Assembly: GCA_964487375.1 (NCBI GenBank)
Contig: CAZAQA010000009.1
Location: forward strand, 47,747-111,746
DNA from: an uncultured Anaerolineae bacterium
Lineage (GTDB): Bacteria > Chloroflexota > Anaerolineae > JAADDB01
Reading direction: 5' to 3'
Length of the DNA stretch: 64,000 nucleotides
The notes under the pieces: model-generated
What the model saw: only the letters and a program-made list of their open reading frames with translations
What the model was told of the DNA's origin: nothing
Database searches by the model: none
Part shown: positions 265-52,491 of the stretch, in pieces
Position numbering within the stretch: the stretch's first letter is position 1
Layout: the number at the start of each line of letters is the position of its first letter
Program-made: the position numbers and the translations under genes

Positions 265-3200
265 TCATTTCACCACCTGATAAATCACTACACCCCTGTT
301 TCGGTACACCACTTTCAGCAGCCCTCGCTCCACCATGCGGTCGAAGCGGGTAATCGCAGCGGGTGGGTACTGCTGACGCTCCAATTGGCCCACGTAGACA
401 TAGTGGATGTCCACCTGACGGATGATGGCCATGGTACGATTGATGTCCGACGTGTTCCAGAACTCCAGGGCCAACTGCTGGCGCGGCCCCGTCTGCCAGC
501 CATAGCGCTGCTCCCCCATCTGGTGCAGCCCCATGAACGTGGGCAATCCCGTGAAGGAAGCCACCCGGGTGCCCCCTTCACGGTAGTAGTCCAGCCGGGC
601 TTCGGCAATGGGCACCACCCGGGGCTCGTGGTCGAGCAGCCAGCGGATGGCCTCGTAATCCCACTTGAGCACGATGCGGTGCTGGGGGTCGGGCCAGGTA
701 TAGACACCGTACTTCATGTAGGCCATGCCGTCCAGGGTGCCGAAAGGTGGGCGTTCGCTCAGCCCTTCGGGGAAGCGGTCCTCCACCCGGGCCACCGTGC
801 CCACGACCAGGAACGTGAGGGAGGCGACCAGAAGCACTGCGAACACCGTCTGCCAGACCGTCCGTACTGTGGGCTTCCAACGAGGTATCGCCTCCCAGAT
901 GCGGGAGAGCCCAACCGCGGCCGCGAGGGCCAGCATGACCCAGGCCTGGATGTAGAACTTGAAGAGGGTGTTCATGCGCTTGAAATCCCCTCCCTGGAGG
1001 TGGTCCTTCAAATAGACGAATTCCACGCCAAAGAGGACCAGGAGGGCGGTGAAGGCCAGGAAAGTGGCAAAAACCACGCCGGCAGGGGCGTTCATTCTCA
1101 GGCTCAGTACCGCGGCAATGAAGAGGGGGAGGAGAAGCACCGCGGGCACCCGGTAGCCAGCAAGCCACAGAAGAGGGGTGAGAATAGCGAAAACGATGCC
1201 AAGTTGATAGCCAAAACTTGACACCTGATACGAACGCTCTGCGCCAGGATGTCGGGCCCTGGAAAGGAGACGTTGGAGGCGCAGAAAACGGGGCAGCCGC
1301 TCGTAGTGAACGACAAGCGCCCGCAATCCGCGGGCCAGCGGCAACCGATCCCGCCGGGTCAACTCCACAGCCAGGAAGCTGAACGCCAGGAAGAGCCAGA
1401 ATCCCCAGATGTTCAGCCATTTGCCCAGGGAAGTCTTCTGCGGGGCCCAACCGACGCCCGAGGCCGCGATGGGTTTGTAGTGGCTGAAGAAAGGCCTATA
1501 GAGCAGATAAGCGCCCACCAGGATGAAGCCTACCTGGACGGCCCACAGCCCCCAACTTATTCGCTTTCGAGTCCGCCACTGGCGCAGGAAAAGAGCCACA
1601 GCCAGTACTCCCAGGTACGTGGGCAGGTCCCAAGTGTTGATGACGGCCAGTGCACCCAGCCCCAAGGGCAAGAGGGCAAACTGCACCAGTCCTGCCCAAA
1701 ATCCTTCGGTAAACCAGAAACGCCGTGCGCCTATGATGAGATTATAAGCCATCCCCAAAACGACGATCGTGAAGGGAATGCCCATCATGTGAGGGTGCAG
1801 GTCCGCGAAGAGGAAGGACCAGTACGGAAACTCGTTGATGGTGTAGGGAATGACGCGACTGGGAAGCCAGTAGTTGTACTTGGGCATCACGGCCTCATGG
1901 GCCAACACTTTGCTGAGTCCGACCAAAGCACGCACCCACGTCTGCAACCAGGGAAAGATGCTGCGGAAATCGGAACCGCTCACCTGGGCCAGATTGCGCA
2001 AAATGAGTCCCAGGCCGTCCAGGTTGCCGAAGAGGGCCACGAACGCGGCGCCGATGAGGCCCGCCCACCGTGCAGACCGGGGAGCCCAGTCGGAGACCAT
2101 ATCGTACACCAGAGCACACGCGGCCAACACGGTCAGCGCGAAGAGGGTGGGCACGGCCAGGTTGAACGCCACGGTGGGGGTGATGCCCGTCAATTTGATG
2201 AGCACGTTGACAATCTGGTAGCCCCAGTAGTAATAATTGATAGTCCCACCGGCAAAGTAAGGGTCATAGGGTGGAAAGTAAGGAGTGCGAACGGTCGCGT
2301 TCAGGAAGGCGATCTCCATGAACTTCTCGCCCCCGTTCCAGGGCTGCCACAGGTCCGGGTTCAACAAGCGAATGAAGACGAAGGCGAGATACGCGGCGGC
2401 AAACAGCCCTTCATAAAAGAGAAGGAGCCGCCTGTTCTGTTGGACGAAGGAGCGAAGTTTTTCCCAATGGCGTCGGGCCAGCCAAGCGTTCAGGAGCGTC
2501 ACGATGACCAGAACGGTCAAAACCAGGGGCAGGTCGTTCGTCCACAACCGCAAGGAGGGCACGATCCAGGCCAGGTAAGCGACAACCAGCAACCCGACGC
2601 CGCGCGCGAACGCGTAGCCCCGGTCCCGCAGGTTGGAGAATCCAAGGAAAGTCATGGGCCAGGCAACGAGTCCGATGAGCGTGACGACGAACCACCAGAG
2701 CACAATGGCGGGCCACGTGTGTTCGCTCGCCCAGCGATTCCAGCGCCACCAGCGGACCACCGGCATTTCATCAAAATTCACGTTGAGCAGCAGGGAAGGT
2801 CCCTTTTTCTCTTCTGGCGGCGGTGGGGGGGCGGACGTTTTTTGGCCCTTCCCGAGGGAAGGGAGCAACTTGAAGATGCGCTGCAACAAGGTGGCCCCCC
2901 CGACATCCCAGTGCTTGGCGCCCTTCCAGGTGCCACCCAGCAGTCGGTTCCATTCCTCGTCACTCAGGTCCCGCACTTTTTTGTAGATGAGCACCCGTGG
3001 GTGGTCGTAGACCCAGAAGCTCTCATCCGCTCTGTCATCGGGGAAGACGAAGGGCCCCAGTTGCGGGTAATTGTGCACGTCCAGTACGCGCACAAACCCC
3101 AGTTGTCCGGCAAAGAAGAGCCGGTAGAAGCGGGTGGTCATGGGGTAGCGTTGGGGCAAGCGCGGGATGGACTTGTACAGCCGGGCCGTGGCGAAGATGT

Positions 3201-4983
3201 AATAGTCGGCCTGACGCAAGTTGTGTTTGATCACCTCGAATTTCTTGGCCCTGTCCTCATCGTACATGGGCATCGTGACGTAACGATAGCGTCCCGGGTT
3301 GGCGTTGGGCTCGGGCAGGGGCAGGGGAAGTTGTCGATCCCAGTGCTCCACAGCCAAGCCGGCACCGTCGGGGATATGGGCGTAAATCCAACGGGAGGCG
3401 ACAATCCACGGATGTGTGTGGTCATATACCCCATGCACGAACGCCAGGGACCAGAAGATGGCGTGGGCGAGCACGACACCTGTCAGCAAACAGCCTGCCC
3501 AATACCTCATGCCTGAGATCCGATGCCTGAGATCCGATATCCTGTTATAGGCACCGGGTACAGGATATCGGGTGCCGGATATCGAAGACAGCAAGCCTAC
3601 GCCGAAGATAATGAGCGCGGGCACGATGGGCAAGGTGTAGCGCATGAACTTGGCCAGAAAGAGCCCGGTTGGGCCGAAGTAGAACACCACCCAGGCCAGA
3701 AGCATCCACTCGCCCGGCCACAGGCGACGGCGCGCAGCCTGCACGAAGGCCCAGGCCAATCCCAGCCATCCCAAGAGCCCCAACGCCCAACCCATGCCCC
3801 AGCGGATGGACTGGTTGATGTGATAGAGATATGGAATCGTGCCCCGGTACTGACGCGTGAAGGGGAAATCCGCGTCGCCCCGCACCATGGCTCCCTGTTC
3901 GACGAGAACCGCTTGCCTAAAGTTAGGCCAATCGAGGATGACATAGGGGGAGGTGAGGGCGAAGACGACGGCCGCGGTGCCAAAGGCCAGGATAAGGAGT
4001 TTGATGATGGAAAGAGGACGATAGGCGATAGACGATGGACCGGGGTGGCCCTGTCGTCCACCGTCCACCGTCCATCGTCTGTGCAGCAAATATGTCGCAA
4101 TGAGCGGCGCTACGATAATAGGCAAGGCGCTAAACTTGCTGGCGATGGCCAGGGCCATGCCCACGCCTGTGAGCACTGCGTCACGCGGGCGTCCCTCTTC
4201 GGCCATGCGCATGCCGCCGTACACGGCCAGCATGGTGAATGTGGTGGACATGGGATCCACGGCAAAAAAGTGGGCCAACTGTATTTGCGTCACGGTGAAG
4301 GTGGAAAGGGCCGCGGCCAGTAATCCCCACCATTTTTCGTACAGACGACGGGCAATCAGGTAGACCAGAAAGACGGTCAGGGTGTCACTCAGGGCCATGA
4401 GCAAGCGTCCCACGAACGCGAACCCGGGCGGGCTGGTGGCGGTGCGCAGCATCTGAACCGTCTCCGAGGAAGCGCCCAGGGCCTTGGCCGCGGGGGCCAG
4501 ATGTTTCGCTCCGTTGGCCGTTAGGACTAACAAATACAGGGGGAAGTGGCCGTAAGTATAGGAACGGCGACGGTTCGTGTTCACGTCCCAGAGCGGGTTC
4601 AAGGTGGACTTGTGGGGCTTGAGGATGTCGCTCAGATGCTCAGGCCAGTGGATGGTCGGCGCGTAAAAGGCCACCGTGGAAAGTTCGTCTGGATGGGCAA
4701 GCTGGCCTTCGTCCCACATGACATGGTACGTCCGCAGGTAGAGAGCAACGAGCAGCACCAAGAGGACGAGCACGGGGTGAAGTCGGTCGCGCCAGGCACG
4801 GCCGGAGAGCGGGATAGCCGGTTCCGGCGGGGTCGGGGGCGAATTCTGTCCCCGGGACGGAGCGAATCCAGACGCGTGTTCCTCGCCTTCGGCGATCTGC
4901 TGGGACTTCTCTGTGACCTGGGTCTCCATGATAAGCGTTGGCATCCTCAGATTAGTGAGAGTGAACCGGGCTTGACAAGCCAC
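265..4983 (-). CDS. Very large (about 1560-1572 aa) polytopic membrane protein, GT-C fold / glycosyltransferase family 39 (PMT/ArnT-like) or DUF2298-like
   Basis: Single uninterrupted 1572-aa ORF. Dozens of hydrophobic segments rich in W/Y/F/L. N-terminal region resembles PMT_2/ArnT-type GT-C modules (runs of TM helices with short D/E-containing loops). Internal proline/lysine-rich hydrophilic loop (PPPPPEEKKGP). Alternative starts are GTG 4983, ATG 4944 and ATG 4929. Antisense long ORFs on the + strand were judged high-GC artefacts. Confidence 0.7.
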   Translation of the reverse strand: MACQARFTLTNLRMPTLIMETQVTEKSQQIAEGEEHASGFAPSRGQNSPPTPPEPAIPLSGRAWRDRLHPVLVLLVLLVALYLRTYHVMWDEGQLAHPDELSTVAFYAPTIHWPEHLSDILKPHKSTLNPLWDVNTNRRRSYTYGHFPLYLLVLTANGAKHLAPAAKALGASSETVQMLRTATSPPGFAFVGRLLMALSDTLTVFLVYLIARRLYEKWWGLLAAALSTFTVTQIQLAHFFAVDPMSTTFTMLAVYGGMRMAEEGRPRDAVLTGVGMALAIASKFSALPIIVAPLIATYLLHRRWTVDGGRQGHPGPSSIAYRPLSIIKLLILAFGTAAVVFALTSPYVILDWPNFRQAVLVEQGAMVRGDADFPFTRQYRGTIPYLYHINQSIRWGMGWALGLLGWLGLAWAFVQAARRRLWPGEWMLLAWVVFYFGPTGLFLAKFMRYTLPIVPALIIFGVGLLSSISGTRYPVPGAYNRISDLRHRISGMRYWAGCLLTGVVLAHAIFWSLAFVHGVYDHTHPWIVASRWIYAHIPDGAGLAVEHWDRQLPLPLPEPNANPGRYRYVTMPMYDEDRAKKFEVIKHNLRQADYYIFATARLYKSIPRLPQRYPMTTRFYRLFFAGQLGFVRVLDVHNYPQLGPFVFPDDRADESFWVYDHPRVLIYKKVRDLSDEEWNRLLGGTWKGAKHWDVGGATLLQRIFKLLPSLGKGQKTSAPPPPPEEKKGPSLLLNVNFDEMPVVRWWRWNRWASEHTWPAIVLWWFVVTLIGLVAWPMTFLGFSNLRDRGYAFARGVGLLVVAYLAWIVPSLRLWTNDLPLVLTVLVIVTLLNAWLARRHWEKLRSFVQQNRRLLLFYEGLFAAAYLAFVFIRLLNPDLWQPWNGGEKFMEIAFLNATVRTPYFPPYDPYFAGGTINYYYWGYQIVNVLIKLTGITPTVAFNLAVPTLFALTVLAACALVYDMVSDWAPRSARWAGLIGAAFVALFGNLDGLGLILRNLAQVSGSDFRSIFPWLQTWVRALVGLSKVLAHEAVMPKYNYWLPSRVIPYTINEFPYWSFLFADLHPHMMGIPFTIVVLGMAYNLIIGARRFWFTEGFWAGLVQFALLPLGLGALAVINTWDLPTYLGVLAVALFLRQWRTRKRISWGLWAVQVGFILVGAYLLYRPFFSHYKPIAASGVGWAPQKTSLGKWLNIWGFWLFLAFSFLAVELTRRDRLPLARGLRALVVHYERLPRFLRLQRLLSRARHPGAERSYQVSSFGYQLGIVFAILTPLLWLAGYRVPAVLLLPLFIAAVLSLRMNAPAGVVFATFLAFTALLVLFGVEFVYLKDHLQGGDFKRMNTLFKFYIQAWVMLALAAAVGLSRIWEAIPRWKPTVRTVWQTVFAVLLVASLTFLVVGTVARVEDRFPEGLSERPPFGTLDGMAYMKYGVYTWPDPQHRIVLKWDYEAIRWLLDHEPRVVPIAEARLDYYREGGTRVASFTGLPTFMGLHQMGEQRYGWQTGPRQQLALEFWNTSDINRTMAIIRQVDIHYVYVGQLERQQYPPAAITRFDRMVERGLLKVVYRNRGVVIYQVVK

Positions 4984-5171: not shown

Positions 5172-5200
5172 TTGGCAACTCGTGGAAAGTAGACTAAAAT
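5172..5200 (+). promoter_or_regulatory. Putative sigma70-type promoter upstream of rseP (TTGGCA-N17-TAAAAT)
   Basis: TTGGCA at 5172-5177, 17-nt spacer, TAAAAT at 5195-5200, about 45 nt upstream of the rseP start codon. It lies in the divergent intergenic region between the giant membrane protein and rseP. Assigned by pattern only. Confidence 0.3.
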
Positions 5201-5248: not shown

Positions 5249-6283
5249 GTGTCGGTTCTGATCTATGTTGTTATCCTGGCTGTTTTGATTTTGCTGCATG
5301 AGTTCGGACACTTCTACGTCGCGCGGCGCAACGGCATCGCGGTCGAAGAGTTCGGACTGGGATTGCCCCCGAAGCTCCTCTCGCTGGGACGCTGGCGGGA
5401 GACGGAGTTCACGTTGAATCTGTTGCCCATCGGCGGGTTTGCCCGGATGCGAGGGGAAGAAGAGGACGCAGGTCCCGGCAGCTTTTGGAGTGCTCCGGCC
5501 GGGGCACGGGCAAAAGTGCTCCTGGCCGGCCCGTTGATGAATATCCTCGTGGCCATCCTGGCTCTGACCCTGGCTTACTTGCTCTTCGTGCCCCATGACG
5601 GCCTCTGGATTGTCAACGTCGCGCCCGGGTATCCCGCGACCAGCGCAGGACTGCGCTCTGGAGATGTGGTCCTGAGTATCGATGGCAAGGCTGTCACCTC
5701 CCGAACGGACTTCATCGCCATCGTGCGGGCCCACGCACATGAGCCCGTCGAGCTGATCGTCCGGCGCGGGGAAAAGCAATTGACCGTAAAGGTCCGGCCC
5801 AAGATTGACCCGCGAGACCAGGTTCCTCGTATCGGCGTGCTGTTGGCCGAACCCATCCCCCTGTGGGAAGCGCCTCTAGGAGCGATCACCGAACTGTGGC
5901 TTTTCACTTCTGCAATGATTCATCTCCCGGGTCAGCTCTTGCAAGGGAAATTGACGGCCGCGGAAGCCCGCCCCCTGGGACCGGTGGGAATTGGCCGACT
6001 CTTCGTGGGGGTCGTCAGCGAACAGCCGAACGCGTTCATGCGTTGGTTCACCGTCTTGCGCCTGAGTGCGATCATCAGTTTTGCTCTGGGCCTGACCAAC
6101 CTGTTGCCCATCCCCGCGCTGGACGGCGGCCGACTGGTCTTCGTACTCCTGGAGATTGTGCGACGCGGCAAACGGGTGAGTCCGCAGAAAGAAGGGCTGG
6201 TCCACCTGGTGGGCATGACCATCCTTCTGGTTCTGATGGTTGTGATCACCTACTACGACATCCGGTATCCGCTGGGAGTGTAA
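5249..6283 (+). CDS. rseP: RseP-like site-2 protease (peptidase M50, zinc metalloprotease with PDZ domain)
   Basis: HEXXH motif LHEFGHF in the first TM helix. Central PDZ-like segment (GYPATSAGLRSGDVVLSIDGKAV). C-terminal LDGG motif (PIPALDGGRLV). Four hydrophobic segments. GTG start at 5249. Confidence 0.85.
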   Translation: MSVLIYVVILAVLILLHEFGHFYVARRNGIAVEEFGLGLPPKLLSLGRWRETEFTLNLLPIGGFARMRGEEEDAGPGSFWSAPAGARAKVLLAGPLMNILVAILALTLAYLLFVPHDGLWIVNVAPGYPATSAGLRSGDVVLSIDGKAVTSRTDFIAIVRAHAHEPVELIVRRGEKQLTVKVRPKIDPRDQVPRIGVLLAEPIPLWEAPLGAITELWLFTSAMIHLPGQLLQGKLTAAEARPLGPVGIGRLFVGVVSEQPNAFMRWFTVLRLSAIISFALGLTNLLPIPALDGGRLVFVLLEIVRRGKRVSPQKEGLVHLVGMTILLVLMVVITYYDIRYPLGV

Positions 6284-6284
6284 C

Positions 6285-7106
6285 TTGATCGGCAGCCGCG
6301 ACCACACGCGTGGAATCCTCTCCCGCTTGCGGGGGCAAGCACCCTTTGCACGCTCCTCCTCCACGAGGAGATCCGCTCGTCCGGTGAGGAAAATTTGCCC
6401 TCGCTGTGGCGCTCCCGTCCCTCCGGGCGTGCCCGTGTGCCCGACGTGTGGCGCGGCGTTGCCGCTCCCCAGGCGATACGTGCGTTGCCGCTATTGCGGC
6501 TACAAGGCCGATGCCCGGTTGCGAGTCTGTCCCTCTTGCGGTCGCACCCTGCGCCCCCGCCCCTGGTATCGGAACCGACTGCTTTACCTGACCTTAGGAC
6601 TTCTCTTGCTCGTCAGCGGGATCGGCATCTCCTCGGACTGGCGCCCTCATTTGAATCCGCAGGCCTGGCTGACTCAGGCGCGCACCCGGGTGAACGCCTT
6701 GCTGCCCGAGATGACGCCCATCGCCCTGGTGATCATCCCTTCCCCTACGCCCACGTCCACCTTCACCCCAACGTATACGCCATCCCCCACCTTCACACAA
6801 ACCCCGACGCCAACCATCACCCCGACGCCGACGGTCACGCCCACGCCCACACCCTTGCCCCCGGCAACGAAGTACAAGGTTCAGCCGGGGGACACGCCCG
6901 CCACGATTGCCCGCCAGTTTGGCATCCCGCTGGAGGTCCTCCTGGCGGCCAACGACTTGACGACTAAGGATGTCATCCGCGTAGGACAGGAGTTGACCAT
7001 CCCCTTGCCCACCCCAACACCAAGCCCCAGTCCGACTCCGACCAGGCCGGCGCCGAACCTTCGAACGGCAACGCCGACGGCAACGGTGATGCCAACATCG
7101 GGATGA
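6285..7106 (+). CDS. Type II single-pass membrane protein: N-terminal double zinc-ribbon, one TM helix, Pro/Thr-rich linkers, C-terminal LysM domain
   Basis: N-terminus has CPRCG...CPTCG and CRYCG...CPSCG, four CxxC pairs forming two zinc ribbons. TM segment LLYLTLGLLLLVSGIGI. Two PT-rich low-complexity linkers. LysM signature YKVQPGDTPATIARQFGIPLEVLLAANDL...RVGQELTIP. The start is TTG at 6285, 1 nt after the rseP stop (coupled), or GTG at 6384. Confidence 0.65.
   Translation: MIGSRDHTRGILSRLRGQAPFARSSSTRRSARPVRKICPRCGAPVPPGVPVCPTCGAALPLPRRYVRCRYCGYKADARLRVCPSCGRTLRPRPWYRNRLLYLTLGLLLLVSGIGISSDWRPHLNPQAWLTQARTRVNALLPEMTPIALVIIPSPTPTSTFTPTYTPSPTFTQTPTPTITPTPTVTPTPTPLPPATKYKVQPGDTPATIARQFGIPLEVLLAANDLTTKDVIRVGQELTIPLPTPTPSPSPTPTRPAPNLRTATPTATVMPTSG
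6740..6865 (+). repeat. Pro/Thr-rich low-complexity coding repeat (PTPT/TPTP units), with a second block at about 7010-7085
   Basis: DNA shows reiterated ACGCCnACn/CCCACG units encoding PSPTPTSTFTPTYTPSPTFTQTPTPTITPTPTVTPTPTP. A second block encodes PLPTPTPSPSPTPTRP. Confidence 0.5.
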
Positions 7107-7265
7107 GTGCGGGATCCTCCCGGATAGCCCTGCATCGCCCTTGTTCCTCCCAACGAGCGTTATGAGGTATACTTGGAAGGCTATTGTTGTACGTCTGTGG
7201 GGTCACCGGGAACTCAAAAGCCCGGGATCGGGCCCCGGTGAAAGGCCCTTTTCCGCAGCAGGGAC

Positions 7266-8246
7266 ATGAGTGGAGGCAGTATGGTTGATGAGCAATTAGT
7301 CCATATTCTGTTGGAGATCGTCCGTGAAGGCCGGCTATGGCACCTGGCGCCGGCGGTCTCCTCTCCTGACAAACGGATGATGGAGGCGTTCCGGGAGGCG
7401 TGGGCACGCATCCATCCTGTGGAACGGCAAGAGGTGGTCAAATCCCTCGTTGAAGAGGCGGAAGAGCACATCGAGTACGATTTCTTCCCCATTCTCCGTT
7501 GGCTGCTGGGAGACGAGGACCCCGAGGTGCGCCAGACAGCCATCGAGGGATTGTGGGAAGACGAATCCCCTGCCCTCATCGGGCCTTTGCTCTACATCTT
7601 GGAACACGATCCAGAGCCACAAGTACGGGCCGCCGCGGCCACTGGCTTGGGACGCTTCGTCCTCTTGTACGAGTTGGAGGAAATTTCTACCCGTGAGATG
7701 ACCCCCGTCATCGAACGGCTGATCCAGAAAGTCAATGACAAGAATGAGGATATCGAGGTACAGCGCCGTTCGCTAGAGGCCATCTCGCCCCTGGGCGAAC
7801 CCCATATCCGGGACCTGATCGAGGCCGCGTACTATCATCCGGACCTGCGGATGCAGGCGAGTGCCTTATTCGCCATGGGGCGCAATCTGGCCGAACAGTG
7901 GGAACCCATGGTCCTGGCCGAGCTGGAAAGTCCCGAACCGGAGCTACGCTATGAGGCGGCGATTGCGGCCGGTGAGATGGAGCTGATCGACGCCCTTCCC
8001 AAACTGTCCCAAATCATCGCGTCGGACGAAAGCCTGCAGGTGCGCCTGGCGGCCATCGAAGCTCTGGGGAATATCGGCGGCCCGGAGTCTGAGCGCATCC
8101 TCCTGAGGCAACTGGACGCCCCTGAGGAGATCGTCGCCAAGACGGCCCAAGAGGCACTGGACGAACTTTACTTCATGGCCGGACAGGACGACTTCCCCCT
8201 CCTGTACCTCCCCGACGAAGAGGGCCCTGACATCCCCTGGGAGTGA
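7266..8246 (+). CDS. HEAT-repeat (PBS-lyase type) protein
   Basis: At least 6 repeats of the pattern D/E-x-VR-x-x-A-x-x-x-LG (EVRQTAIEGLWE, QVRAAAATGLGRF, LRYEAAIAAGEM, VRLAAIEALGNIG). Acidic C-terminus. Confidence 0.7.
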   Translation: MSGGSMVDEQLVHILLEIVREGRLWHLAPAVSSPDKRMMEAFREAWARIHPVERQEVVKSLVEEAEEHIEYDFFPILRWLLGDEDPEVRQTAIEGLWEDESPALIGPLLYILEHDPEPQVRAAAATGLGRFVLLYELEEISTREMTPVIERLIQKVNDKNEDIEVQRRSLEAISPLGEPHIRDLIEAAYYHPDLRMQASALFAMGRNLAEQWEPMVLAELESPEPELRYEAAIAAGEMELIDALPKLSQIIASDESLQVRLAAIEALGNIGGPESERILLRQLDAPEEIVAKTAQEALDELYFMAGQDDFPLLYLPDEEGPDIPWE

Positions 8247-8281: not shown

Positions 8282-8632
8282 ATGAACCTGCGACTTCGAC
8301 GTCTGGTACGCACACCTTTCTCGGAGCAGTTCGCACTTTACCGCCTGCGCGACGAAGACAGCGACGAAAACGGCAAGGGAAATACAAAGGGGGAACCCAT
8401 AACGGTGGGAAAAGTGGATATGCATTTCACCGATGAGGGGGTGTTCGGAACCTTGCTGCTCTGGGAGGACGGGATCAAAGACTGGGACGAGGAGACTTTG
8501 AACCAATTCATCCGAGACCTTATTGAGGACATGTGCGAACCCACCGGCATGCCCGACAGCTACATCATCGAGTTCTTTGCCCCGTCGGTGGACACATATC
8601 GCTTCTTCACCAACCTGGAGGAGGCGGACTAG
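8282..8632 (+). CDS. Small acidic hypothetical protein (116 aa)
   Basis: ORF downstream of and co-directional with the HEAT protein. Start trimmed to the ATG at 8282 after the HEAT stop. No recognisable motif. Confidence 0.45.
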   Translation: MNLRLRRLVRTPFSEQFALYRLRDEDSDENGKGNTKGEPITVGKVDMHFTDEGVFGTLLLWEDGIKDWDEETLNQFIRDLIEDMCEPTGMPDSYIIEFFAPSVDTYRFFTNLEEAD

Positions 8633-8637
8633 CCGGC

Positions 8638-9555
8638 GTGCTCTTCCTGACCGTCCTCTGGAACGTCGTCCTGCCCATCTTCCTGGTGGCAAGCCTGGGG
8701 ATCCTCCTTCAACGCAAGCTGGGATTGGAACCCCAGCCGCTCTCCCGGGCTGTGTTTTATGTGTTCTCGCCCTGTCTGGCGTTCAGCGGGCTTTACTCCC
8801 TGCACTTGAACGGGGATGGTATCGGCGACGCCCTCCTCCTGGCCTTCTCCATCAGCGCCTTCGCCCTCCTGGCGGGATTCATGGTCAGCCGTCTGGGGCA
8901 TTTTTCTCGTCTACACACCAGCGCCACCCTCCTGGTGCTTTTGAACAGCAACACGGGAAACTACGGCCTGCCTCTCAACCAGTTTGCGTTTGGCGCTGCC
9001 GGGTTCAACATCGCCATCCTTTATTTCGTCGTCAATTCCACGTTGGCCAACAGCGTGGGCGTGTACATTGCCTCAGCCGGCCGGGCCAGCCCCATGCAGG
9101 CGTTGCGCAATGTCAGCCGAACTCCCCTGGTGTACGCGACGGTCCTGGCGCTCATCTTCAACCGGCAAGGTTGGTCCGTTCCTGCTCCCATCTACAAAGC
9201 CATTTCTCTCAGCGCTCAGGCAGCCGTACCCGTGATGTTGATTATCCTGGGCATTCACCTGGGGCGGCTGGGCACCCACGTGCGCTGGCTACACACTCTC
9301 CCCGTCGTGATTCTGAAACTCACTTTAGCGCCTCTCCTGGCCTGGACGATCAGCGGCCTCCTGGGGATGAGTGGCGTCAGCCGGGCGGTGGGCATCGTCC
9401 AACTCTCCATGCCGACCGCGGTTATGAGTACCGTCCTCTCCACGGAATTCGACTGTGAGCCGGAGTACGTGGCTGAGGTGGTATTCGTCACCACCGTGGT
9501 TAGCATCCTGACCCTGACTGTGCTCGTCTCCTTGCTCAAATTGTACGTCGTATGA
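8638..9555 (+). CDS. AEC family transporter (auxin efflux carrier / malate permease-like)
   Basis: About 305 aa with roughly 10 TM segments and a two-half architecture. GTG start at 8638 preceded by GGAGGAGG (8618-8625), immediately after the upstream stop. The 5' part of the track ORF overlaps the previous gene in another frame and was discarded. Confidence 0.75.
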   Translation: MLFLTVLWNVVLPIFLVASLGILLQRKLGLEPQPLSRAVFYVFSPCLAFSGLYSLHLNGDGIGDALLLAFSISAFALLAGFMVSRLGHFSRLHTSATLLVLLNSNTGNYGLPLNQFAFGAAGFNIAILYFVVNSTLANSVGVYIASAGRASPMQALRNVSRTPLVYATVLALIFNRQGWSVPAPIYKAISLSAQAAVPVMLIILGIHLGRLGTHVRWLHTLPVVILKLTLAPLLAWTISGLLGMSGVSRAVGIVQLSMPTAVMSTVLSTEFDCEPEYVAEVVFVTTVVSILTLTVLVSLLKLYVV

Positions 9556-9642
9556 CCGTAGACACACAGACACCCGTCTAATTCCTAACTCGCCCTCTGG
9601 TCTGGGGACGACAGTTTGGTCGCTCAGCACGATGGGAGCATA

Positions 9643-10308
9643 ATGCAGTCAACAATATCTACGGCAGACGAGAGGATGCATATGACGGGAACCATAAAGT
9701 CGAACGGTCCAAAAAACGAACGGGGAGCACCCAAACAGAAGAAAAATGGGGAGAAGAAAGAGCTCCACCGTCTCATCAACGAAGGCGCCCGGCTCCTGGC
9801 CCAGCGAAAGGGCAAAGAAGCCGCAGAGGTCCTGGAGAAGGCATACTACCTGGCCCCGGATGATGCAGATGTGTTGATCAACCTGGGGGGCGCTTATATC
9901 CTTCAGCACAAGTTCGCCGACGCCATTGCCATCCTGGAGGAAGCGACCAGGGTCGCGCCGGATAATCCCATGGTGTGGACGAACCTGGCCGCGGCCTACC
10001 TGGGGCACCTGGAACATGCGGGTGAGGAGGAGCAACGGGCAGCCATCGCCGCGTTCAAGAAAGCCCTGGAGCTGGACCCGAAAGCACCACACGTGAACTA
10101 CAATTTGGGGCTGATTTACCTGCAGCGAGGGGATTTGACCGAGGCGCTGGCCCATTTCCGCCGCGCCCTGGATGTCAACCCCGCCGACAAGGACGCTCTG
10201 CACTATGTCCAGAAACTCCGGCTCCGGTTGGCGAAGGAACAGGCACAGGAGAAGGGACAAAGTTCCGAATCGTCGGGCGAGGACGGCGGCCCGGCCGGGG
10301 CCGCGTGA
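9643..10308 (+). CDS. Tetratricopeptide-repeat protein
   Basis: Several 34-aa TPR units (AYYLAPDDADVLINLGGAYILQHKFADAIAILEEA..., ALELDPKAPHVNYNLGLIYLQRGDLTEALAHFRRALDVNP). Basic N-terminus and acidic C-tail. ATG 9643 has a GGGAG RBS; alternative TTG at 9616. Confidence 0.7.
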   Translation: MQSTISTADERMHMTGTIKSNGPKNERGAPKQKKNGEKKELHRLINEGARLLAQRKGKEAAEVLEKAYYLAPDDADVLINLGGAYILQHKFADAIAILEEATRVAPDNPMVWTNLAAAYLGHLEHAGEEEQRAAIAAFKKALELDPKAPHVNYNLGLIYLQRGDLTEALAHFRRALDVNPADKDALHYVQKLRLRLAKEQAQEKGQSSESSGEDGGPAGAA

Positions 10309-11564
10309 GGATGAAGGGGCGAGCGATGCAAGGCCTGTGGCAGCGGAGTCCGGAGCGTGTGGCCTGGGTGGTCATGCTCCTCTCGTTTTTTCTCTGCCTG
10401 GTCCTGGCCGTCGGTACCCCGTTAGGGGTGCGGACCTTCCTCAGGCACGCGTCTCAGCCGGTTCCTCTGAAAGCCCGCTCCTTGCACGGCATTGCCCTCC
10501 TGGCCGTCCCCGGGCAGGAAGAACTGGCCGCCATCACCCGCCCGCGTGCTTTCACTCCCGGACGTACCCTGCGCACAGACGCGAGCTCTTCCGCGCTCCT
10601 GTCCGCCAGCGGAGAAGGAGGAGGGGAATTTGCGGCCGAGGTCATTACCATCCTCATGTACAATAACACCGAGCTGACCCTGCTCACCGCAGAACGTCCT
10701 CGGTTCCCCCAGTGGAGCCCCGACCCGGTACGGGTAAAAGTGCGGGTCGATCAGGGCCGTATCCGTGTGGTCAGCGGCCGTTACGACCACCGGCCACTGA
10801 TCACCACGGTGGAAACCCCCCACGGACTCGTGACGGCTCAGGACGCGTCTTTCTCGGTCTTCGTGAACAATCAAGGCATGGAAGTCACGGTCCGGCAGGG
10901 GAGAGTGCGGGTTTTTGCTCGGGGGCTGGAAGTGCCGGTGGCTGAAGGCCAGCGGACCAAGGTCCCTCTGGCCCAGCCTCCCCAACCGCCCACCTCCGCG
11001 GAGCGCAACCTGATTCGGAACGGCAATTTCACCCAGCCCTTGGAGACAACCTGGACGGTAGGATTTCTGCAGCCGGACGTGGTAACCGCGGGCACGGTTT
11101 CGGTCGTGGACGCGGGGGGACGCCGTGCGGTTCAGTTCACGCGCCGCGCCGAAGAGGGGGTACACACCGAAGTCTGGATCGAGCAGAAACTCAACCGGGA
11201 CGTGCGCGATGTGGATTCCCTGGTCCTGCGCATGGACGTACGTTTGCTCTACCAAAGCCTGCCTGGGGGAGGATTCCTGGGCTCGGAGTACCCATTGATG
11301 GTGCGCATCGACTACACCGATGTCTACGGCAAGGACCGTTTCTGGGTTCACGGGTTCTACTTCCGCGATCCGCAAAAGGGATGGCCCACAGTGAACGGAG
11401 AGAAGATTCCTCCCTTTGTCTGGTGGCCTTATGAATCCACCAACCTGGTGGCCCTTTGGGAGCAAACCAACACCCGGCCGGCCGTGCTGCACAAAATCCG
11501 CATTTACGCATCGGGACATAATTATCAGTCCATGGTGGCCGAGGTGGGGCTCTTTGCCCGCTGA
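10305..11564 (+). CDS. Hypothetical membrane-anchored protein (N-terminal TM helix, large extracytoplasmic domain; possibly FecR-like)
   Basis: ORF start overlaps the TPR stop. Hydrophobic anchor VAWVVMLLSFFLCLVLAVG. Remaining 380 aa hydrophilic with W/Y-rich C-terminus. No catalytic motif recognised. Confidence 0.55.
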   Translation: MRMKGRAMQGLWQRSPERVAWVVMLLSFFLCLVLAVGTPLGVRTFLRHASQPVPLKARSLHGIALLAVPGQEELAAITRPRAFTPGRTLRTDASSSALLSASGEGGGEFAAEVITILMYNNTELTLLTAERPRFPQWSPDPVRVKVRVDQGRIRVVSGRYDHRPLITTVETPHGLVTAQDASFSVFVNNQGMEVTVRQGRVRVFARGLEVPVAEGQRTKVPLAQPPQPPTSAERNLIRNGNFTQPLETTWTVGFLQPDVVTAGTVSVVDAGGRRAVQFTRRAEEGVHTEVWIEQKLNRDVRDVDSLVLRMDVRLLYQSLPGGGFLGSEYPLMVRIDYTDVYGKDRFWVHGFYFRDPQKGWPTVNGEKIPPFVWWPYESTNLVALWEQTNTRPAVLHKIRIYASGHNYQSMVAEVGLFAR

Positions 11565-11611
11565 GCAGGCCGGATCGTCTCGGAGTGTCGGAAGCGCGAG
11601 GAGGGAGAACG

Positions 11612-12154
11612 ATGTATCACCCGATCATGGTCACGGGAATTGACCCTATTGGCTGGGAGTCGATGGAAGCAGCCTGTCAGATCATCGAGCCGCGTTTCAA
11701 CGCCGTCTGCCTGCTGGAGGAACCCTTGAGCGCGCCGGACAGCGCTTACGACGCCGAGCGCCACCAGTATCGCAGTGACGTTCTGCTCGGATACCTGCGC
11801 TTGCTGACGCCGGACCATGTGGAAAAACTGGTGGCGTTGACCGAGCTGGACCTGTACGTGCCCGGGCTGAACTTTGTCTTTGGCCAGGCCGAGCGAGGAG
11901 GGCGCAACGCTGTCGTGAGCGTAGCCCGCCTGCATCCCGAATTTTACGGTCATCCCGCCGACATGGCCTTGTTCCTGAGCCGAGTGCGCAAAGAAGTGGT
12001 ACACGAACTCGGCCACACGTATGGGCTTGACCACTGTTCAGACTCCCGGTGCGTCATGTCGTTCTCCAACAGCATCGCCGAGGTAGACCGCAAGCGCTCG
12101 GAGTTCTGCACCCACTGCCAACGACATCTGAAAACGCGGCTCGGTAAGTGGTGA
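11612..12154 (+). CDS. amzA: Archaemetzincin (peptidase M54, AmzA-like zinc metallopeptidase)
   Basis: Signature HELGHTYGLDHCSDSRCVMSFSNS, i.e. the HExxHxxGxxH zinc site followed by the Cys4-type motif CxxxxC...CxxC (CTHCQRH). Size about 180 aa from ATG 11612. Confidence 0.75.
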   Translation: MYHPIMVTGIDPIGWESMEAACQIIEPRFNAVCLLEEPLSAPDSAYDAERHQYRSDVLLGYLRLLTPDHVEKLVALTELDLYVPGLNFVFGQAERGGRNAVVSVARLHPEFYGHPADMALFLSRVRKEVVHELGHTYGLDHCSDSRCVMSFSNSIAEVDRKRSEFCTHCQRHLKTRLGKW

Positions 12155-35591: not shown

Positions 35592-35795
35592 AATGCTCCT
35601 CCTGGACAAGACACAGGCTAACGGGACCACGAGACAAACCTCATTATACTCGAGCCCCAAAGATGCTTCAAACCACACGGTTTGCCAGGCCCCCCGCGAA
35701 GATTGGGATGAAGCGGCGCTTCACCCAACGCGAACCGCCATAAGGCCGTTTTTGCAAAACAAACCCACGGCTTTGATACCGCCGACCAGCCGCGC

Positions 35796-39107: not shown

Positions 39108-40733
39108 TCAGTCCTCTCCGAAGATGTCCGTCAGCGCACTGTCAAAGTCCATCGGCGGGGGCGCCTCTCCCCCCAGGGGCGTTTGCATGGCCCGATAGAA
39201 GGTTTCGTCGTACTCACGAGTGCGCAGGAGAATGGGCATAGGCACCGCATGCCCCATGATGAGCACCTGCTTCTTCGTCTCCAGACTTTCGAGGGCTCCG
39301 CGCACGGCCTGCCGCCCCGCCACCCCGGTGAGCACGGCGTCAATGTCCGCGTCCTCGGTCAACTTCCCGGTCACGCGCGTGCCCAACTGGGAGAGAACCT
39401 CCCGGTCGATGCCACTTGGCCGCTGGTCAATGACCAACAGGGTGACATTGTACTTACGCATTTCCCGGGCAATGGTGCCGAAAATCGTCTGCTGCGCCAC
39501 TTGGGGGCTGAGGAATTTGTGCGCCTCTTCAATGGTAATCATCAGGGGGACAGGCTTATCTGCCGCCTGCCTGCTCTCCTGATAACGCTCCATTTTTTTC
39601 TGGTACGCCTGACGTACCCGCCGGGTGATGATGTTGGCCACGAGCATGTGATCGAGCATGCCTGTGTTGGGGGGAAAATGAAGGATGACATGGGTTCTAC
39701 GGTCGATAAGGGCAAGCATCTCATCCACCGCCCGCTGGTCTGCATGCTCCACCACGTAAGGGCGGCGGCGAATGCGCATCAAGGCCCGGCGCAGTGCAGC
39801 CACGGACGCGGGATGGGCGCCACTCCGGCTGCAGAAATCGTCGATGGCCGCGTTATCCATGTTTAGGAGTGTGCCCAGCCATTCCTCACGGAAGTGGTCC
39901 ACCAGTAAATCCACCGTGGTCGTGGCTTTCTCCGTCAGGCTGAGCTCCTCGGAGAGGAGCAAGATGTCCTCAGGCTCTATCTGGTCCAGCCCGATTTGAA
40001 CGTGACGGTCGGCGTTGCGATTGTTTGCGTCCAGGGACCAGACCTGTACACGGGTTGGGAAAAGCTCTTTCAACCCCTTGACCCATATTCCCTCTTCGGA
40101 CTCCTTGCCGAACGCGTACTCGTCGTGCATGTCGAAGACGAGATTAACGCCCACCTTGCGGTGAATGACGCCGCAAAGGAGGAGCCGGGCCAGGAAGGAC
40201 TTCCCCGTCCCAGATTGTCCGAAAATGCCGTTGGAGCGCTCCATGAGCCGCCGCAAATCAATGGCCACAGGGATATCCGATGTCAGAGGGGTACCGATGC
40301 TAAAGCGATGATCGGAATTGGTGTCCTCGCCGAAGACTTGACGGTAATCATCCTCGCCAGCCTCTCGCAAGAGGGAGAAGTGGCCGGGAATGGTGCGCAC
40401 GGGGCGGACCCGCTCGGTGGGATCGATGAAGGGGACGTCCTCTTGCCGGGGAAGCATGAGCATGGGTTTGACCTGGGCCACAGCATACGTGCCGGTCCCT
40501 GCCAGCGCTCGAGCCGTCAACGACTTCCGATCTTGAGGCGGCTCGGCCATCAAGTTGGCATCGGTCACTTGCAACTGTAGATCGGCTATCATGCTAAAGT
40601 AAAGGTACGTTTGTCCCTCGATGACGACGAAATCACCGATGCGCACCTGCTCCGTGTTCACCTCCGCATCCAGCCGGACGGAGAGACTCGCGTTGAAGGC
40701 ACCGCCGGTCACCACTCCCAAACGTTGTGTCAT
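39108..40733 (-). CDS. herA: HerA-like ATPase (DUF87 / HAS-barrel plus FtsK-HerA-type P-loop NTPase)
   Basis: N-terminal HAS-barrel-like segment GVVTGGAFNASLSVRLDAEVNTEQVRIGDFVVIEGQTYLYFSMI. Walker A GQSGTGKS. Walker B/DEAH-like PLMITIEEAHKFL. Downstream TLLVIDQRPS typical of HerA/FtsK. Acidic C-tail. Confidence 0.65.
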   Translation of the reverse strand: MTQRLGVVTGGAFNASLSVRLDAEVNTEQVRIGDFVVIEGQTYLYFSMIADLQLQVTDANLMAEPPQDRKSLTARALAGTGTYAVAQVKPMLMLPRQEDVPFIDPTERVRPVRTIPGHFSLLREAGEDDYRQVFGEDTNSDHRFSIGTPLTSDIPVAIDLRRLMERSNGIFGQSGTGKSFLARLLLCGVIHRKVGVNLVFDMHDEYAFGKESEEGIWVKGLKELFPTRVQVWSLDANNRNADRHVQIGLDQIEPEDILLLSEELSLTEKATTTVDLLVDHFREEWLGTLLNMDNAAIDDFCSRSGAHPASVAALRRALMRIRRRPYVVEHADQRAVDEMLALIDRRTHVILHFPPNTGMLDHMLVANIITRRVRQAYQKKMERYQESRQAADKPVPLMITIEEAHKFLSPQVAQQTIFGTIAREMRKYNVTLLVIDQRPSGIDREVLSQLGTRVTGKLTEDADIDAVLTGVAGRQAVRGALESLETKKQVLIMGHAVPMPILLRTREYDETFYRAMQTPLGGEAPPPMDFDSALTDIFGED

Positions 40734-51491: not shown

Positions 51492-51743
51492 CTACCGTTC
51501 CGTAATGAAGTCGTCCAGATTCAACACCCGGAAAAGGCGTACCTCCACTTCATGAGGCATTTCTGGGGGTTCGAGACGGTGATACAGGGCCAGCGTCTTG
51601 CTCATGGAATCAAACACGACGTAGCAATTGCGGCATGTGGCCAGATGTTCTTCGATGGCCTGGCAAAGGCTGGGAGAGAGTTCTCCGTCCACATACGCGC
51701 TGATCAAATTGAGCACATCCGTACAGTTCAATTGAGCAGCCAT
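51492..51743 (-). CDS. ZAS-type (zinc-binding) anti-sigma factor
   Basis: H-x3-C-x2-C motif HLATCRNC with an additional upstream Cys (SLCQ), as in RsrA-family redox-sensing anti-sigma factors. Sits 64 nt downstream of the ECF sigma gene. About 83 aa. Confidence 0.6.
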   Translation of the reverse strand: MAAQLNCTDVLNLISAYVDGELSPSLCQAIEEHLATCRNCYVVFDSMSKTLALYHRLEPPEMPHEVEVRLFRVLNLDDFITER

Positions 51744-51806
51744 ACACACTCCGTTCTTCATCCTCCGAGGCCAAGCCCCGAGGATTCAAAGGAGGCTCCT
51801 ATGCGG

Positions 51807-52436: not shown

Positions 52437-52491
52437 TGGATGCACTTGCCCTTACATGCGTTACGCCGCCCGTTTATGGGTGCCCCTTCCA

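Follow-up and report, generated by a model that had tools for sequence, protein, structure and literature searches.

Conserved pairing of an RseP-type site-2 protease gene with a translationally coupled zinc-ribbon/LysM membrane protein gene in the Anaerolineae

The locus described here is a two-gene unit, in which the gene of an RseP-type site-2 protease is followed after a single nucleotide by the coupled gene of an N-in bitopic membrane protein that combines a double zinc ribbon with a LysM domain (hereafter ZnR-LysM). It lies within a 64,000-nt stretch of DNA from an uncultured Anaerolineae bacterium (hereafter the window, whose first letter is position 1), where it forms the conserved core of a gene block that is old in the Anaerolineae. 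Because the pair has been kept across the whole class, ZnR-LysM is a credible candidate for a new client or regulator of RseP. Among the three functions weighed below, those of a protease substrate, a regulator resembling SpoIVFA, and a wall protein resembling ChiZ or YneA, our tentative preference is for the RseP client. The features of the locus are as follows.

5172-5200, plus strand: sigma-70-like promoter candidate upstream of rseP, TTGGCA-17-TAAAAT, with 10/12 consensus matches
5249-6283, plus strand: rseP, encoding a 344-aa group I site-2 protease (M50) with a single PDZ domain; GTG start
5297-5311, plus strand: HEFGH zinc-binding catalytic motif (HExxH, in TM1), RseP residues 17-21
5594-5803, plus strand: single PDZ domain, RseP residues 116-185 (PDZ_6 1.3e-14, PDZ_2 3.5e-12)
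6098-6130, plus strand: NLLPIPALDGG, second catalytic motif (LDG; NxxPxxxLDG) in the third core TM, RseP residues 284-294
6274-6278, plus strand: GGGAG Shine-Dalgarno sequence for ZnR-LysM, within the last rseP codons
6285-7106, plus strand: zinc-ribbon/TM/LysM gene, 273 aa, TTG start 1 nt past the rseP stop
6285-6383, plus strand: Arg-rich N-terminal extension (pI 12), under weak constraint and predicted to be disordered
6387-6554, plus strand: double zinc ribbon with four invariant CxxC motifs
6576-6632, plus strand: single TM helix, residues 98-116, from the AlphaFold2 model and flanking-charge analysis
6657-6740, plus strand: extracytoplasmic juxtamembrane helix (residues 125-142) and TPIALVIIP (residues 144-152)
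6741-6863, plus strand: Pro/Thr-rich stalk, of low pLDDT and devoid of secondary structure
6864-7004, plus strand: LysM domain (Pfam match 4.8e-13)
7222-7238, no strand assigned: GC-rich hairpin between the LysM and HEAT genes (gap of 160 nt), terminator-like on the minus strand only
7281-8246, plus strand: acidic HEAT-repeat protein, pI 4.4, a conserved downstream neighbour
8282-8632, plus strand: conserved 116-aa acidic protein, pI 4.3, belonging to no known family
8638-12154, plus strand: rest of the conserved block, encoding a Mem_trans (AEC) transporter, a TPR protein, a FecR-domain protein and an archaemetzincin (M54)

Judged by its sequence, the product of the first gene is an intact RseP-type site-2 protease (S2P), and its proteolytic activity is predicted. 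It matches Pfam Peptidase_M50 at 1.7e-49, passes the equivalog cutoff of the NCBIfam family TIGR00054 “RIP metalloprotease RseP” (197.1 bits vs 147.55), and has the RseP structures 7w6y, 9j82 and 7w6x as its closest relatives in the PDB. Both catalytic motifs align with those of the solved structures 7w6y and 7w6x, their counterparts in the former being HEWGH and NLLPIPMLDGG. The PDZ domain is extracytoplasmic and inserted between the core TMs; it is the only one, whereas the RseP proteins of E. coli, Kangiella and Aquifex have two. Natural fusions of RseP with LysM were absent from the best 120 RseP homologues. The promoter candidate upstream of rseP is weak, being the sole match in 4 kb where about 0.9 would be expected by chance, and the same scan detected no separate promoter for the ZnR-LysM gene.

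The sequence of the window leaves two starts possible for ZnR-LysM: a TTG at 6285, the earliest that can be used, and an in-frame GTG at 6384. The original prediction had placed the start 1 nt past the rseP stop, a TAA, and this upstream start is now supported by three observations. A GGGAG or AGGAG Shine-Dalgarno sequence, 6-8 nt 5' of the start, is kept in the window and in the related loci L088, L083 and L090; the upstream start is the sole in-frame start of the L083 orthologue; and the N-terminal extension of 33-37 codons is weakly constrained, with 20, 14 and 24 substitutions at the three codon positions. The GTG at 6384 as sole start was rejected, since L083 offers the upstream one only. 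Translational coupling of the two genes is supported by the position of this conserved Shine-Dalgarno sequence, which lies within the final codons of rseP. They are separated by 1-2 nt or overlap in the window, L088, L083, L090 and L097, and are 70-260 nt apart in several lineages; the gaps of 1-2 nt and the Shine-Dalgarno sequence within rseP together point to selection for co-expression.

From its N-terminus onwards, the ZnR-LysM protein has a basic tail, then the double zinc ribbon, a TM helix, a juxtamembrane helix, a Pro/Thr stalk and one LysM domain. The ribbon, TM helix, stalk and LysM domain had been read from the sequence in the original prediction, and profile searches and the structural model bear them out. 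The ribbon matches Pfam DZR over residues 38-86 (1.3e-9; 38.5 bits vs a cutoff of 27.3), with CxxC motifs at residues 38, 52, 68 and 82, and all eight of its cysteines are invariant across 24 homologues; two distant orthologues retain the membrane-proximal ribbon only. The domain is strongly basic (pI 11.5), and in every orthologue 10-14 residues separate its last cysteine from the TM. The LysM match covers residues 197-240 (49.3 bits vs a cutoff of 20.9). In the AlphaFold2 model, the zinc-ribbon module is confident, there is one TM helix, the stalk is disordered, and the LysM domain shows the E-H-H-E secondary structure of the beta-alpha-alpha-beta fold at a pLDDT of about 95. A Foldseek search with this model returned LysM structures only, at an rmsd of 1-2 A, and family membership predicts that the domain binds peptidoglycan or other GlcNAc polymers. 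For the zinc-ribbon/TM part, a PDB sequence search gave no match below E=0.08, and an exhaustive search with the region from ribbon to juxtamembrane helix gave 848 representatives at E<=1e-3 and 18 at E<=1e-10, the majority of which covered the generic ribbon only and provided no functional lead.

ZnR-LysM is a type II (N-in, C-out) single-span protein, with the zinc ribbons N-terminal and LysM C-terminal to the membrane span. The N-terminus is placed inside because of the charges flanking the TM (five K+R on the N-terminal side vs one on the C-terminal side), an excess that recurs in most orthologues. A signal-peptide topology is ruled out, as the TM begins only at residue 98, and thus the membrane anchor of the original prediction stands against a cleavable signal peptide. 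The zinc-ribbon module is accordingly predicted to be at the cytoplasmic face of the membrane, and LysM to be in the wall, at the end of the Pro/Thr stalk. TPIALVIIP forms a conserved hydrophobic strip about 30 residues past the TM, and in this juxtamembrane region the close clade shows little or no variation at P141, V149, I151 and P152. An LPxTG-type sorting signal in LPEMTP-IALVII was considered and dismissed: it is not C-terminal, its hydrophobic part falls short of the length required, and L017 does not conserve it.

In 12 of the 14 Chloroflexota lineages sampled, rseP lies directly 5' of a zinc-ribbon/TM/LysM gene on the same strand, at RseP identities of 38-80%, and this synteny holds across Anaerolineae and Caldilineae-type Chloroflexota. 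Among 79 rseP loci of other phyla, none shows this arrangement. Such a distribution, in related lineages as against outgroup loci, shows that the arrangement is not due to chance, and it answers the test that had been set beforehand for the original prediction. The outgroup loci came from a contig search with RseP, keyed on the universal HEFGHFYV motif, which retrieved mainly distant phyla and one Anaerolineae locus only; a metagenome search with the LysM-protein alignment yielded six loci only.

The order of the conserved block is selA, isopentenyl-phosphate kinase, rseP, ZnR-LysM, HEAT, small acidic protein, (AEC) and TPR. At L083 and L094, both flanks have been replaced and the rseP-LysM pair alone has been retained. 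The link between the LysM and HEAT genes is about as persistent as that between rseP and LysM. In two lineages (L085/L091 and L096) the LysM gene accompanies the HEAT/TPR block without rseP, LysM and HEAT being still adjacent at L096, where rseP is gone; in the P0007/P0008 clade, the LysM gene likewise remains with the block and not with rseP. Two lineages possess both rseP and ZnR-LysM, but apart. The hairpin at 7222-7238 may be a weak terminator or attenuator; on the plus strand, no T-run directly follows its stem. The FecR-domain protein of the block is itself N-in and bitopic.

We consider it possible, if still tentative, that ZnR-LysM is a dedicated client of RseP. S2Ps cut type II single-pass proteins once the ectodomain has been removed, and the presence of a PDZ domain in such a protease implies that this prior trimming is needed (review, PMC10202637). 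While LysM is engaged with peptidoglycan, the ectodomain of 155 residues would bar ZnR-LysM from the PDZ-gated protease. Loss of the ectodomain, or its clipping in the exposed stalk or juxtamembrane region, plausibly near the conserved hydrophobic strip, would leave a stub that RseP could then cleave within the membrane, and the basic zinc-ribbon domain would be released or destroyed. Once released, the ribbon may act as an effector, may free bound partners, for instance the products of the neighbouring genes (the acidic HEAT protein and the small acidic one), or may simply be removed.

Several results argue for the client. The protease is intact in both catalytic motifs and its PDZ domain, and its neighbour, N-in and single-pass with a large ectodomain, has the topology that S2Ps cut. 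The adjacency persists down to 38% RseP identity and is absent from the outgroup, the pair alone survives rearrangement in L083 and L094, and the close or overlapping junctions with their Shine-Dalgarno sequence inside rseP point the same way. Moreover, the layout parallels that of RsgI, a proven RseP substrate (PMC10328401), and RseP and RasP also cut bitopic proteins other than anti-sigma factors, namely FecR and FtsL.

Against the client stand the features of its TM and the content of the block. Helix-destabilising residues (G, S or T) make up 7 of the 19 TM positions in the window and from 1 to 7 of 19 in orthologues, with no conserved position. Two or more consecutive alanines in the TM are the usual site of RseP/RasP cleavage and ClpXP tagging in RsgI and RseP substrates (PMC10328401); no rseP-adjacent ZnR-LysM orthologue has them, and AA occurs only in P0017, a non-adjacent orthologue. 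The motif is common among RseP/RasP substrates and not obligatory. Profile searches identified no site-1 protease candidate in the block, there is no DNA-binding domain in ZnR-LysM or the conserved block, and no sigma factor gene is found in the block, whether in the window or at the related loci; the only ECF sigma factor of the window is 45 kb off, with its own soluble zf-HC2 partner. The LysM gene can also accompany the HEAT/TPR block without rseP, and the conserved neighbours of rseP elsewhere (dxr, cdsA, bamA and proS) are not known to encode substrates. Translational coupling, furthermore, is commoner for complex subunits than for enzyme-substrate pairs.

A rival that we regard as only slightly less probable is that ZnR-LysM is a co-transcribed wall or division protein of the ChiZ/YneA kind without any proteolytic link. 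Its TM and LysM domain would serve to influence the synthesis of peptidoglycan or the organisation of the envelope, possibly in cooperation with the TPR, HEAT and small acidic proteins, and rseP would be no more than an ancestral upstream neighbour in a conserved block of envelope- and isoprenoid-related genes. The overall layout is indeed common to ChiZ and YneA (PMC7851954, PMC13396833), and the missing canonical substrate motifs are in keeping with such a role. So is gene order, in that the whole block is conserved, including genes with no plausible link to proteolysis, and in that LysM stays with HEAT at L096 and with the block in the P0007/P0008 clade. However, a mere ancestral neighbour would not readily account for L083 and L094, where precisely the rseP-LysM pair is retained between replaced flanks, nor for the selection for co-expression indicated at the junction, and outside the LysM domain there is no sequence homology with either ChiZ or YneA.

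That ZnR-LysM is a wall-tethered accessory or regulatory subunit of RseP seems unlikely. It would bind RseP in the membrane, with LysM anchoring or gating the protease, so that the status of the wall would control the access of other substrates. Translational coupling fits stoichiometric subunits, and the fixed distance between ribbon and TM is as expected of a module docked at the membrane face. SpoIVFA, the only well-studied bitopic protein with a wall domain in complex with an S2P, sets a precedent that also weighs against the client, for it is an inhibitor (PMC9042235, PMC3533761). On the other hand, the TM sequence is poorly conserved, neither a BofA-like partner nor homology to SpoIVFA was found, the two genes are apart in two lineages, and the gaps of 70-260 nt in several others speak against obligatory co-translation.

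More improbable still is an extension of the client, in which rseP, ZnR-LysM and the genes of the acidic HEAT and small acidic proteins would form an Anaerolineae-specific wall-sensing module for regulated intramembrane proteolysis (RIP), independent of any sigma factor. The acidic proteins (pI 4.3-4.4), both cytoplasmic, would be tethered to the membrane by the basic zinc ribbon; once LysM came off the peptidoglycan, the stalk would be clipped, RseP would cleave, and the acidic proteins would be set free. An anti-sigma factor can be rejected, as ZnR-LysM has neither an ASD/zf-HC2 domain nor a sigma factor gene beside it: searches for zf-HC2 (HxxxCxxC), RskA and RsgI_N gave no Pfam or NCBIfam match at E<=0.01, whereas a true zf-HC2 protein of the window was detected at 3e-14. 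The original prediction of a peptidoglycan-sensing RIP circuit whose released zinc ribbon is active retains its synteny and its N-in anchor, but the circuit itself is unsupported, and several indirect checks of it, such as those for the consecutive-Ala motif and for sigma, anti-sigma and DNA-binding domains, turned out neutral or negative.

The pairing of rseP with ZnR-LysM appears to be undescribed. Knowledge of bacterial S2P signalling comes nearly entirely from Proteobacteria, Firmicutes and Actinobacteria and is centred on anti-sigma factors. Our literature searches on zinc ribbons combined with LysM and S2P, and on double-zinc-ribbon anti-sigma factors, found nothing relevant (the sole mention of DZR concerned a phage sigma-like protein), and no report was found of a wall-binding bitopic protein conserved and co-translated with a housekeeping RseP. 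If the two proteins are directly linked, the pair would open a first way into envelope sensing in the Anaerolineae, which are poorly studied and mostly uncultured, and ZnR-LysM would represent either a RIP substrate of a new class, with a zinc ribbon but lacking a sigma factor, or else the first regulator of an RseP-type protease to resemble SpoIVFA; the wall-sensing module, if true, would amount to a new output logic for bacterial RIP. If they are not linked, what has been found is an uncharacterised LysM protein whose gene lies in a conserved order of neighbours.

The known systems resemble the pair in different parts. The gene spoIVFA lies in the same operon as spoIVFB, and the SpoIVFA-SpoIVFB couple of Bacillus sporulation is, like the rseP pair, an S2P with a bitopic protein whose ectodomain is related to peptidoglycan. 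SpoIVFA, whose degenerate LytM domain is of the M23 type, forms an inhibitory complex with SpoIVFB and needs BofA (PMC9042235, PMC3533761); ZnR-LysM carries LysM instead, has no M23 match or sequence relationship to SpoIVFA and no BofA-like gene nearby, and SpoIVFB has a CBS domain where the RseP of the window has a PDZ domain. ChiZ (Rv2719c) has an Arg-rich cytoplasmic N-terminus that binds acidic membranes, a TM, a linker and LysM (PMC7851954), and thus shares with ZnR-LysM the basic N-terminus, the TM, the short or disordered linker and the extracellular LysM. The likeness to YneA, which acts on FtsW through its TM and LysM domains (PMC13396833) and is removed by DdcP and CtpA (PMC6051672), is confined to the TM-plus-LysM part. 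Both ChiZ and YneA are division inhibitors induced by DNA damage, without zinc ribbons or a genetic link to an S2P; LexA control and a block of septal PG synthesis characterise proteins of their type.

Closer to the client are the substrates of the same protease family. RseA/RseP, RsiW/RasP and RsiV/RasP likewise involve type II substrates (PMC10202637); unlike in these systems, the zinc module of ZnR-LysM is a double zinc ribbon of four CxxC motifs, not zf-HC2/ZAS, and its block is without a sigma factor. FtsL/RasP and FecR/RseP illustrate that RseP-family proteases also cut bitopic proteins other than classical anti-sigma factors (PMC8144685), although the genes of FtsL and FecR do not adjoin that of the protease and their domains differ from those of ZnR-LysM. 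RsgI undergoes intramembrane cleavage by RseP after removal of its ectodomain (PMC10328401, PMC12203970). ZnR-LysM differs from it in having no RsgI_N anti-sigma domain or adjacent sigI-like gene, no autoproteolytic periplasmic domain of about 100 aa with an Asn-Pro site, and no AA motif in the TM; the RsgI gene adjoins that of a sigma factor, and the ZnR-LysM gene that of the protease. Nonetheless, RsgI of Clostridium thermocellum and Bacillus subtilis and ZnR-LysM are alike in their N-in single-pass topology, their cytoplasmic N-terminal domain and their extracellular C-terminal glycan-binding module.

The gene directly 3' of rseP encodes a zinc-ribbon/TM/LysM protein (ZnR-LysM), and the two reading frames are as follows.

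5249-6283 (+), rseP, an ORF encoding 344 aa with a TAA stop
6285-7106 (+), the ZnR-LysM gene, an ORF of 273 codons with a TTG start one base past the rseP TAA

The upstream product looks like an intact housekeeping RseP that carries a single PDZ domain (Pfam, residues 116-185) rather than the tandem pair. This reading is based on the PDZ match and that to Pfam Peptidase_M50 (1.7e-49), on a score of 197 bits against the NCBIfam equivalog TIGR00054, "RIP metalloprotease RseP" (curated cutoff 147.55), and on the alignment of HEFGH (residues 17-21) and NLLPIPALDGG (residues 284-294) with the catalytic motifs of the closest solved structures, the RseP proteins of Kangiella, Aquifex and E. coli.

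The original prediction described the downstream partner as a double zinc ribbon with four CxxC, one TM helix in the N-in orientation, a stalk and a LysM domain, beginning after a 1-nt gap, and every element of this description was correct. Pfam places the double zinc ribbon at residues 38-86, with CxxC at residues 38, 52, 68 and 82, and the LysM domain at residues 197-240. In an AlphaFold2 model built from 24 homologues, the ribbon module (pLDDT about 90) and the LysM fold are confident, a single TM helix (98-116) is followed by an extracytoplasmic helix (125-142), and the Pro/Thr stalk is unstructured; LysM structures were the sole Foldseek matches to this model. With about 100 residues ahead of it, the TM is not a signal peptide, and the protein is predicted to be anchored N-in, with 5 K+R residues on the N-terminal side of the TM versus 1 on the C-terminal side, an excess common to most orthologues. 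From what is known of the two families, zinc ribbons need the cytoplasm, which is reducing, and LysM attaches to glycan of the wall outside the cell, which fits this topology.

Across the family, the best-conserved elements are the eight cysteines and the second ribbon together with the residues around it (…VRCRxCG…L.VCPxCGRxL.P…). The spacing from the last cysteine to the TM is fixed at 10-14 residues, and of the TM itself just the hydrophobicity is kept, its small residues being variable. The juxtamembrane helix and a strip, TP[VI]ALVIIP, about 30 residues past the TM, are common to close relatives. Longer orthologues (P0020, and at the related loci L103:5340-6668, L104:5453-6823, L106:5565-7301 and L107:5432-7405) have two LysM domains and a conserved C-terminal domain of about 110 aa (…W..VQV…P.S..R.F.W), which no family covered in a Pfam search and which has been lost from the window protein. 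Some relatives have this domain and no LysM; the constant core is therefore made up of the ribbon, the TM and the stalk. With the ribbon-TM-juxtamembrane module as query, an exhaustive search returned 848 representatives at E<=1e-3, most of them covering the generic ribbon alone, and just 18 at E<=1e-10; the specific family is a small one.

The ZnR-LysM ORF has no internal ATG ahead of the first cysteine, and the candidate starts are TTG 6285, TTG 6327 and GTG 6384. The first is supported by the four closest loci (the window, L088, L083 and L090), in which a TTG or GTG lies 1-2 nt past the rseP stop, or in a 4-nt overlap with it, preceded at 6-8 nt by a GGGAG/AGGAG that the final codons of rseP provide (…P-L/P-G-V-stop). 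L083 has no other in-frame start. The resulting N-terminal extension of 33-37 residues is Arg-rich (pI 12) and predicted to be disordered. Substitutions by codon position number 20/14/24 in this extension (versus L088; nearly no position bias), 14/10/44 in the zinc-ribbon/TM part and 9/1/32 at the rseP 3' end. More distant orthologues start 2-10 residues ahead of the first cysteine. In our reading of these sequences, coupling of translation is genuine in the window subclade, with the extension as its weakly constrained by-product. There is a promoter-like site at 5172-5200, the two genes have no terminator between them, and the 160-nt gap between ZnR-LysM and the next gene contains a hairpin.

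Relatives were sampled both via the LysM protein and via RseP. By the first route, rseP is found directly before the LysM gene, in the same orientation, in L088, L083/L084, L090, L094/L095, L017, L097/L098 and L092/L093. It is absent upstream in the clade of the homologues P0007 and P0008, which has an aminotransferase gene in that position, in L096, whose LysM gene comes immediately 3' of the one for isopentenyl-phosphate kinase, and in L099, whose LysM gene is probably a paralogue. By the second route, a Zn-ribbon/TM/LysM gene follows rseP in four loci: L103 (RseP identity 47%), L104/L105 (43%; the full downstream ORF has four CxxC and a TM), L106 (Caldilineaceae, 38%; one ribbon) and L107 (Chloroflexota, 41%; one ribbon, 657 aa). 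The public gene call for L104:5453-6823 begins at 5693, dropping the zinc ribbons and TM, and shortened calls of this kind hide the family in annotation. L101 has no such gene 3' of rseP; its RseP can be assigned to the P0007/P0008 clade, as a member of its cluster shares a 47.9-kb contig with P0008, at a different place. Overall, the conserved synteny named as a check in the original prediction was borne out: the genes are adjacent in 12 of 14 lineages (gaps of -4 to 259 nt), and a CxxC-rich, TM-bearing or LysM gene occurs 3' of rseP in 0 of 79 loci of other phyla. Among homologues that carry a name, the nearest are MAGs of Anaerolineae, Caldilineaceae and Chloroflexota, which points to an Anaerolineae-type Chloroflexota genome as the source of the window.

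The pair is part of a larger block, whose ancestral order is selA, (DUF126), isopentenyl-phosphate kinase, rseP, ZnR-LysM, HEAT-repeat protein, an acidic protein of about 113 aa, (AEC transporter), TPR protein, (acylphosphatase) and FecR-domain protein. The window keeps it from rseP onward; upstream lies instead a divergent gene, 265-4983 (-), for a 1572-aa membrane protein with PMT_2 (glycosyltransferase family 39-like) and DUF2298. Its downstream members include the following.

7281-8246, HEAT-repeat protein, pI 4.4
8282-8632, acidic protein of 116 aa, no known family, pI 4.3
10326-11564, second N-in bitopic protein of the block: cytoplasmic tail of about 18 aa, TM, FecR domain
11612-12154, archaemetzincin-family (M54) metalloprotease (NCBIfam NF033823, 180 bits)

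The last closes the conserved block, and L085 has one too. Upstream of rseP, the ancestral isopentenyl phosphate kinase (NCBIfam NF040647, 160 bits versus a cutoff of 120), DUF126/AcnX-swivel protein and selA occur at L097:1981-2799 and also in L103, L105, L106 and L107; an isoprenoid gene beside rseP is reminiscent of how dxr and rseP are linked in other bacteria, where the pathway is a different one. Elsewhere in the window are a second LysM protein, 32793-35678 (-) (961 aa; LysM at residues 66-111, then FG-GAP and TPR repeats), and a HerA-like ATPase (DUF87 and HAS barrel), 39108-40733 (-), near a NurA nuclease, 41559-42752 (-), the two separated by a 209-aa ORF. For the LysM gene, linkage to rseP and linkage to the genes downstream are of about equal strength, because the pair alone was kept after rearrangement in L083 and L094, and in L096 the LysM-HEAT link is kept without rseP, as is membership of the block in L085 (HEAT-repeat gene two genes downstream). 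Conserved order alone, when it also takes in selA and an isoprenoid kinase, does not justify reading the pair as an enzyme and its substrate.

RseP, LysM and DZR, the Pfam double zinc ribbon, are each ordinary; what is new is their class-wide, often translationally coupled pairing in Chloroflexota, for which a literature search found no paper. Should the two proteins be directly linked, they would represent a sigma-factor-free variant of bacterial regulated intramembrane proteolysis (RIP) or of the way it is regulated; otherwise, the finding comes down to conserved synteny around a wall protein that is uncharacterised. We tentatively put first, as possible though doubtful, that ZnR-LysM is a dedicated RseP client. 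The wall-bound LysM and long ectodomain would hold it off the PDZ-gated active site, a clip in the stalk or juxtamembrane region would license the intramembrane cut, and the basic ribbon domain would then be released or removed. ZnR-LysM has the type II topology of site-2 protease (S2P) substrates. Helix-destabilising residues make up 7 of the 19 in its TM but vary from 1 to 7 in orthologues, with no position conserved. The usual RseP/RasP cut follows consecutive alanines, residues that double as the ClpXP tag (PMC10328401); none occur in the TM of any rseP-adjacent orthologue. The DegS cut in RseA leaves a hydrophobic C-terminus needed by RseP (Li et al. 2009, as cited in PMC10202637), and the place of that cut roughly corresponds to that of the hydrophobic strip which ZnR-LysM keeps about 30 residues beyond its TM, a suggestive coincidence and a parallel that we draw ourselves. 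Neither an anti-sigma domain in ZnR-LysM (Pfam/NCBIfam) nor an adjoining sigma factor gene was found. The sole ECF sigma in the window, 51807-52445 (-) (212 aa), lies 45 kb away with its own soluble zf-HC2 anti-sigma factor (89 aa; the pair spans 51492-52445 (-)) and is unrelated. The FecR-domain protein likewise has no anti-sigma domain; in E. coli, FecR is among the known substrates of RseP. The peptidoglycan-sensing RIP circuit originally proposed is plausible, having withstood refutation on synteny and topology, but it is unproven and lacks several canonical substrate hallmarks.

Somewhat unlikely is that ZnR-LysM is a wall or division protein like the bitopic LysM division inhibitors ChiZ and YneA, co-transcribed with rseP and without a proteolytic link to it. 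Its architecture closely matches their published descriptions, and both the conserved block and the lineages without rseP adjacency fit this reading. It is improbable that ZnR-LysM is a wall-tethered regulator or subunit of RseP resembling SpoIVFA, which inhibits the S2P SpoIVFB, is encoded in the same operon as that protease and is the one bitopic wall-related protein known to form a complex with an S2P. The coupling agrees with such a role, as does the fixed distance from ribbon to membrane.

The HEAT-repeat and 116-aa acidic proteins, kept with the basic ZnR-LysM in most lineages, are possible cytoplasmic partners of it. Because its cytoplasmic part has a pI of 11.5 (net charge about +20) and these next two products have pI values of 4.4 and 4.3, the ribbon domain may anchor them; it is equally possible that it just binds acidic lipids, in the manner of the Arg-rich tail of ChiZ.
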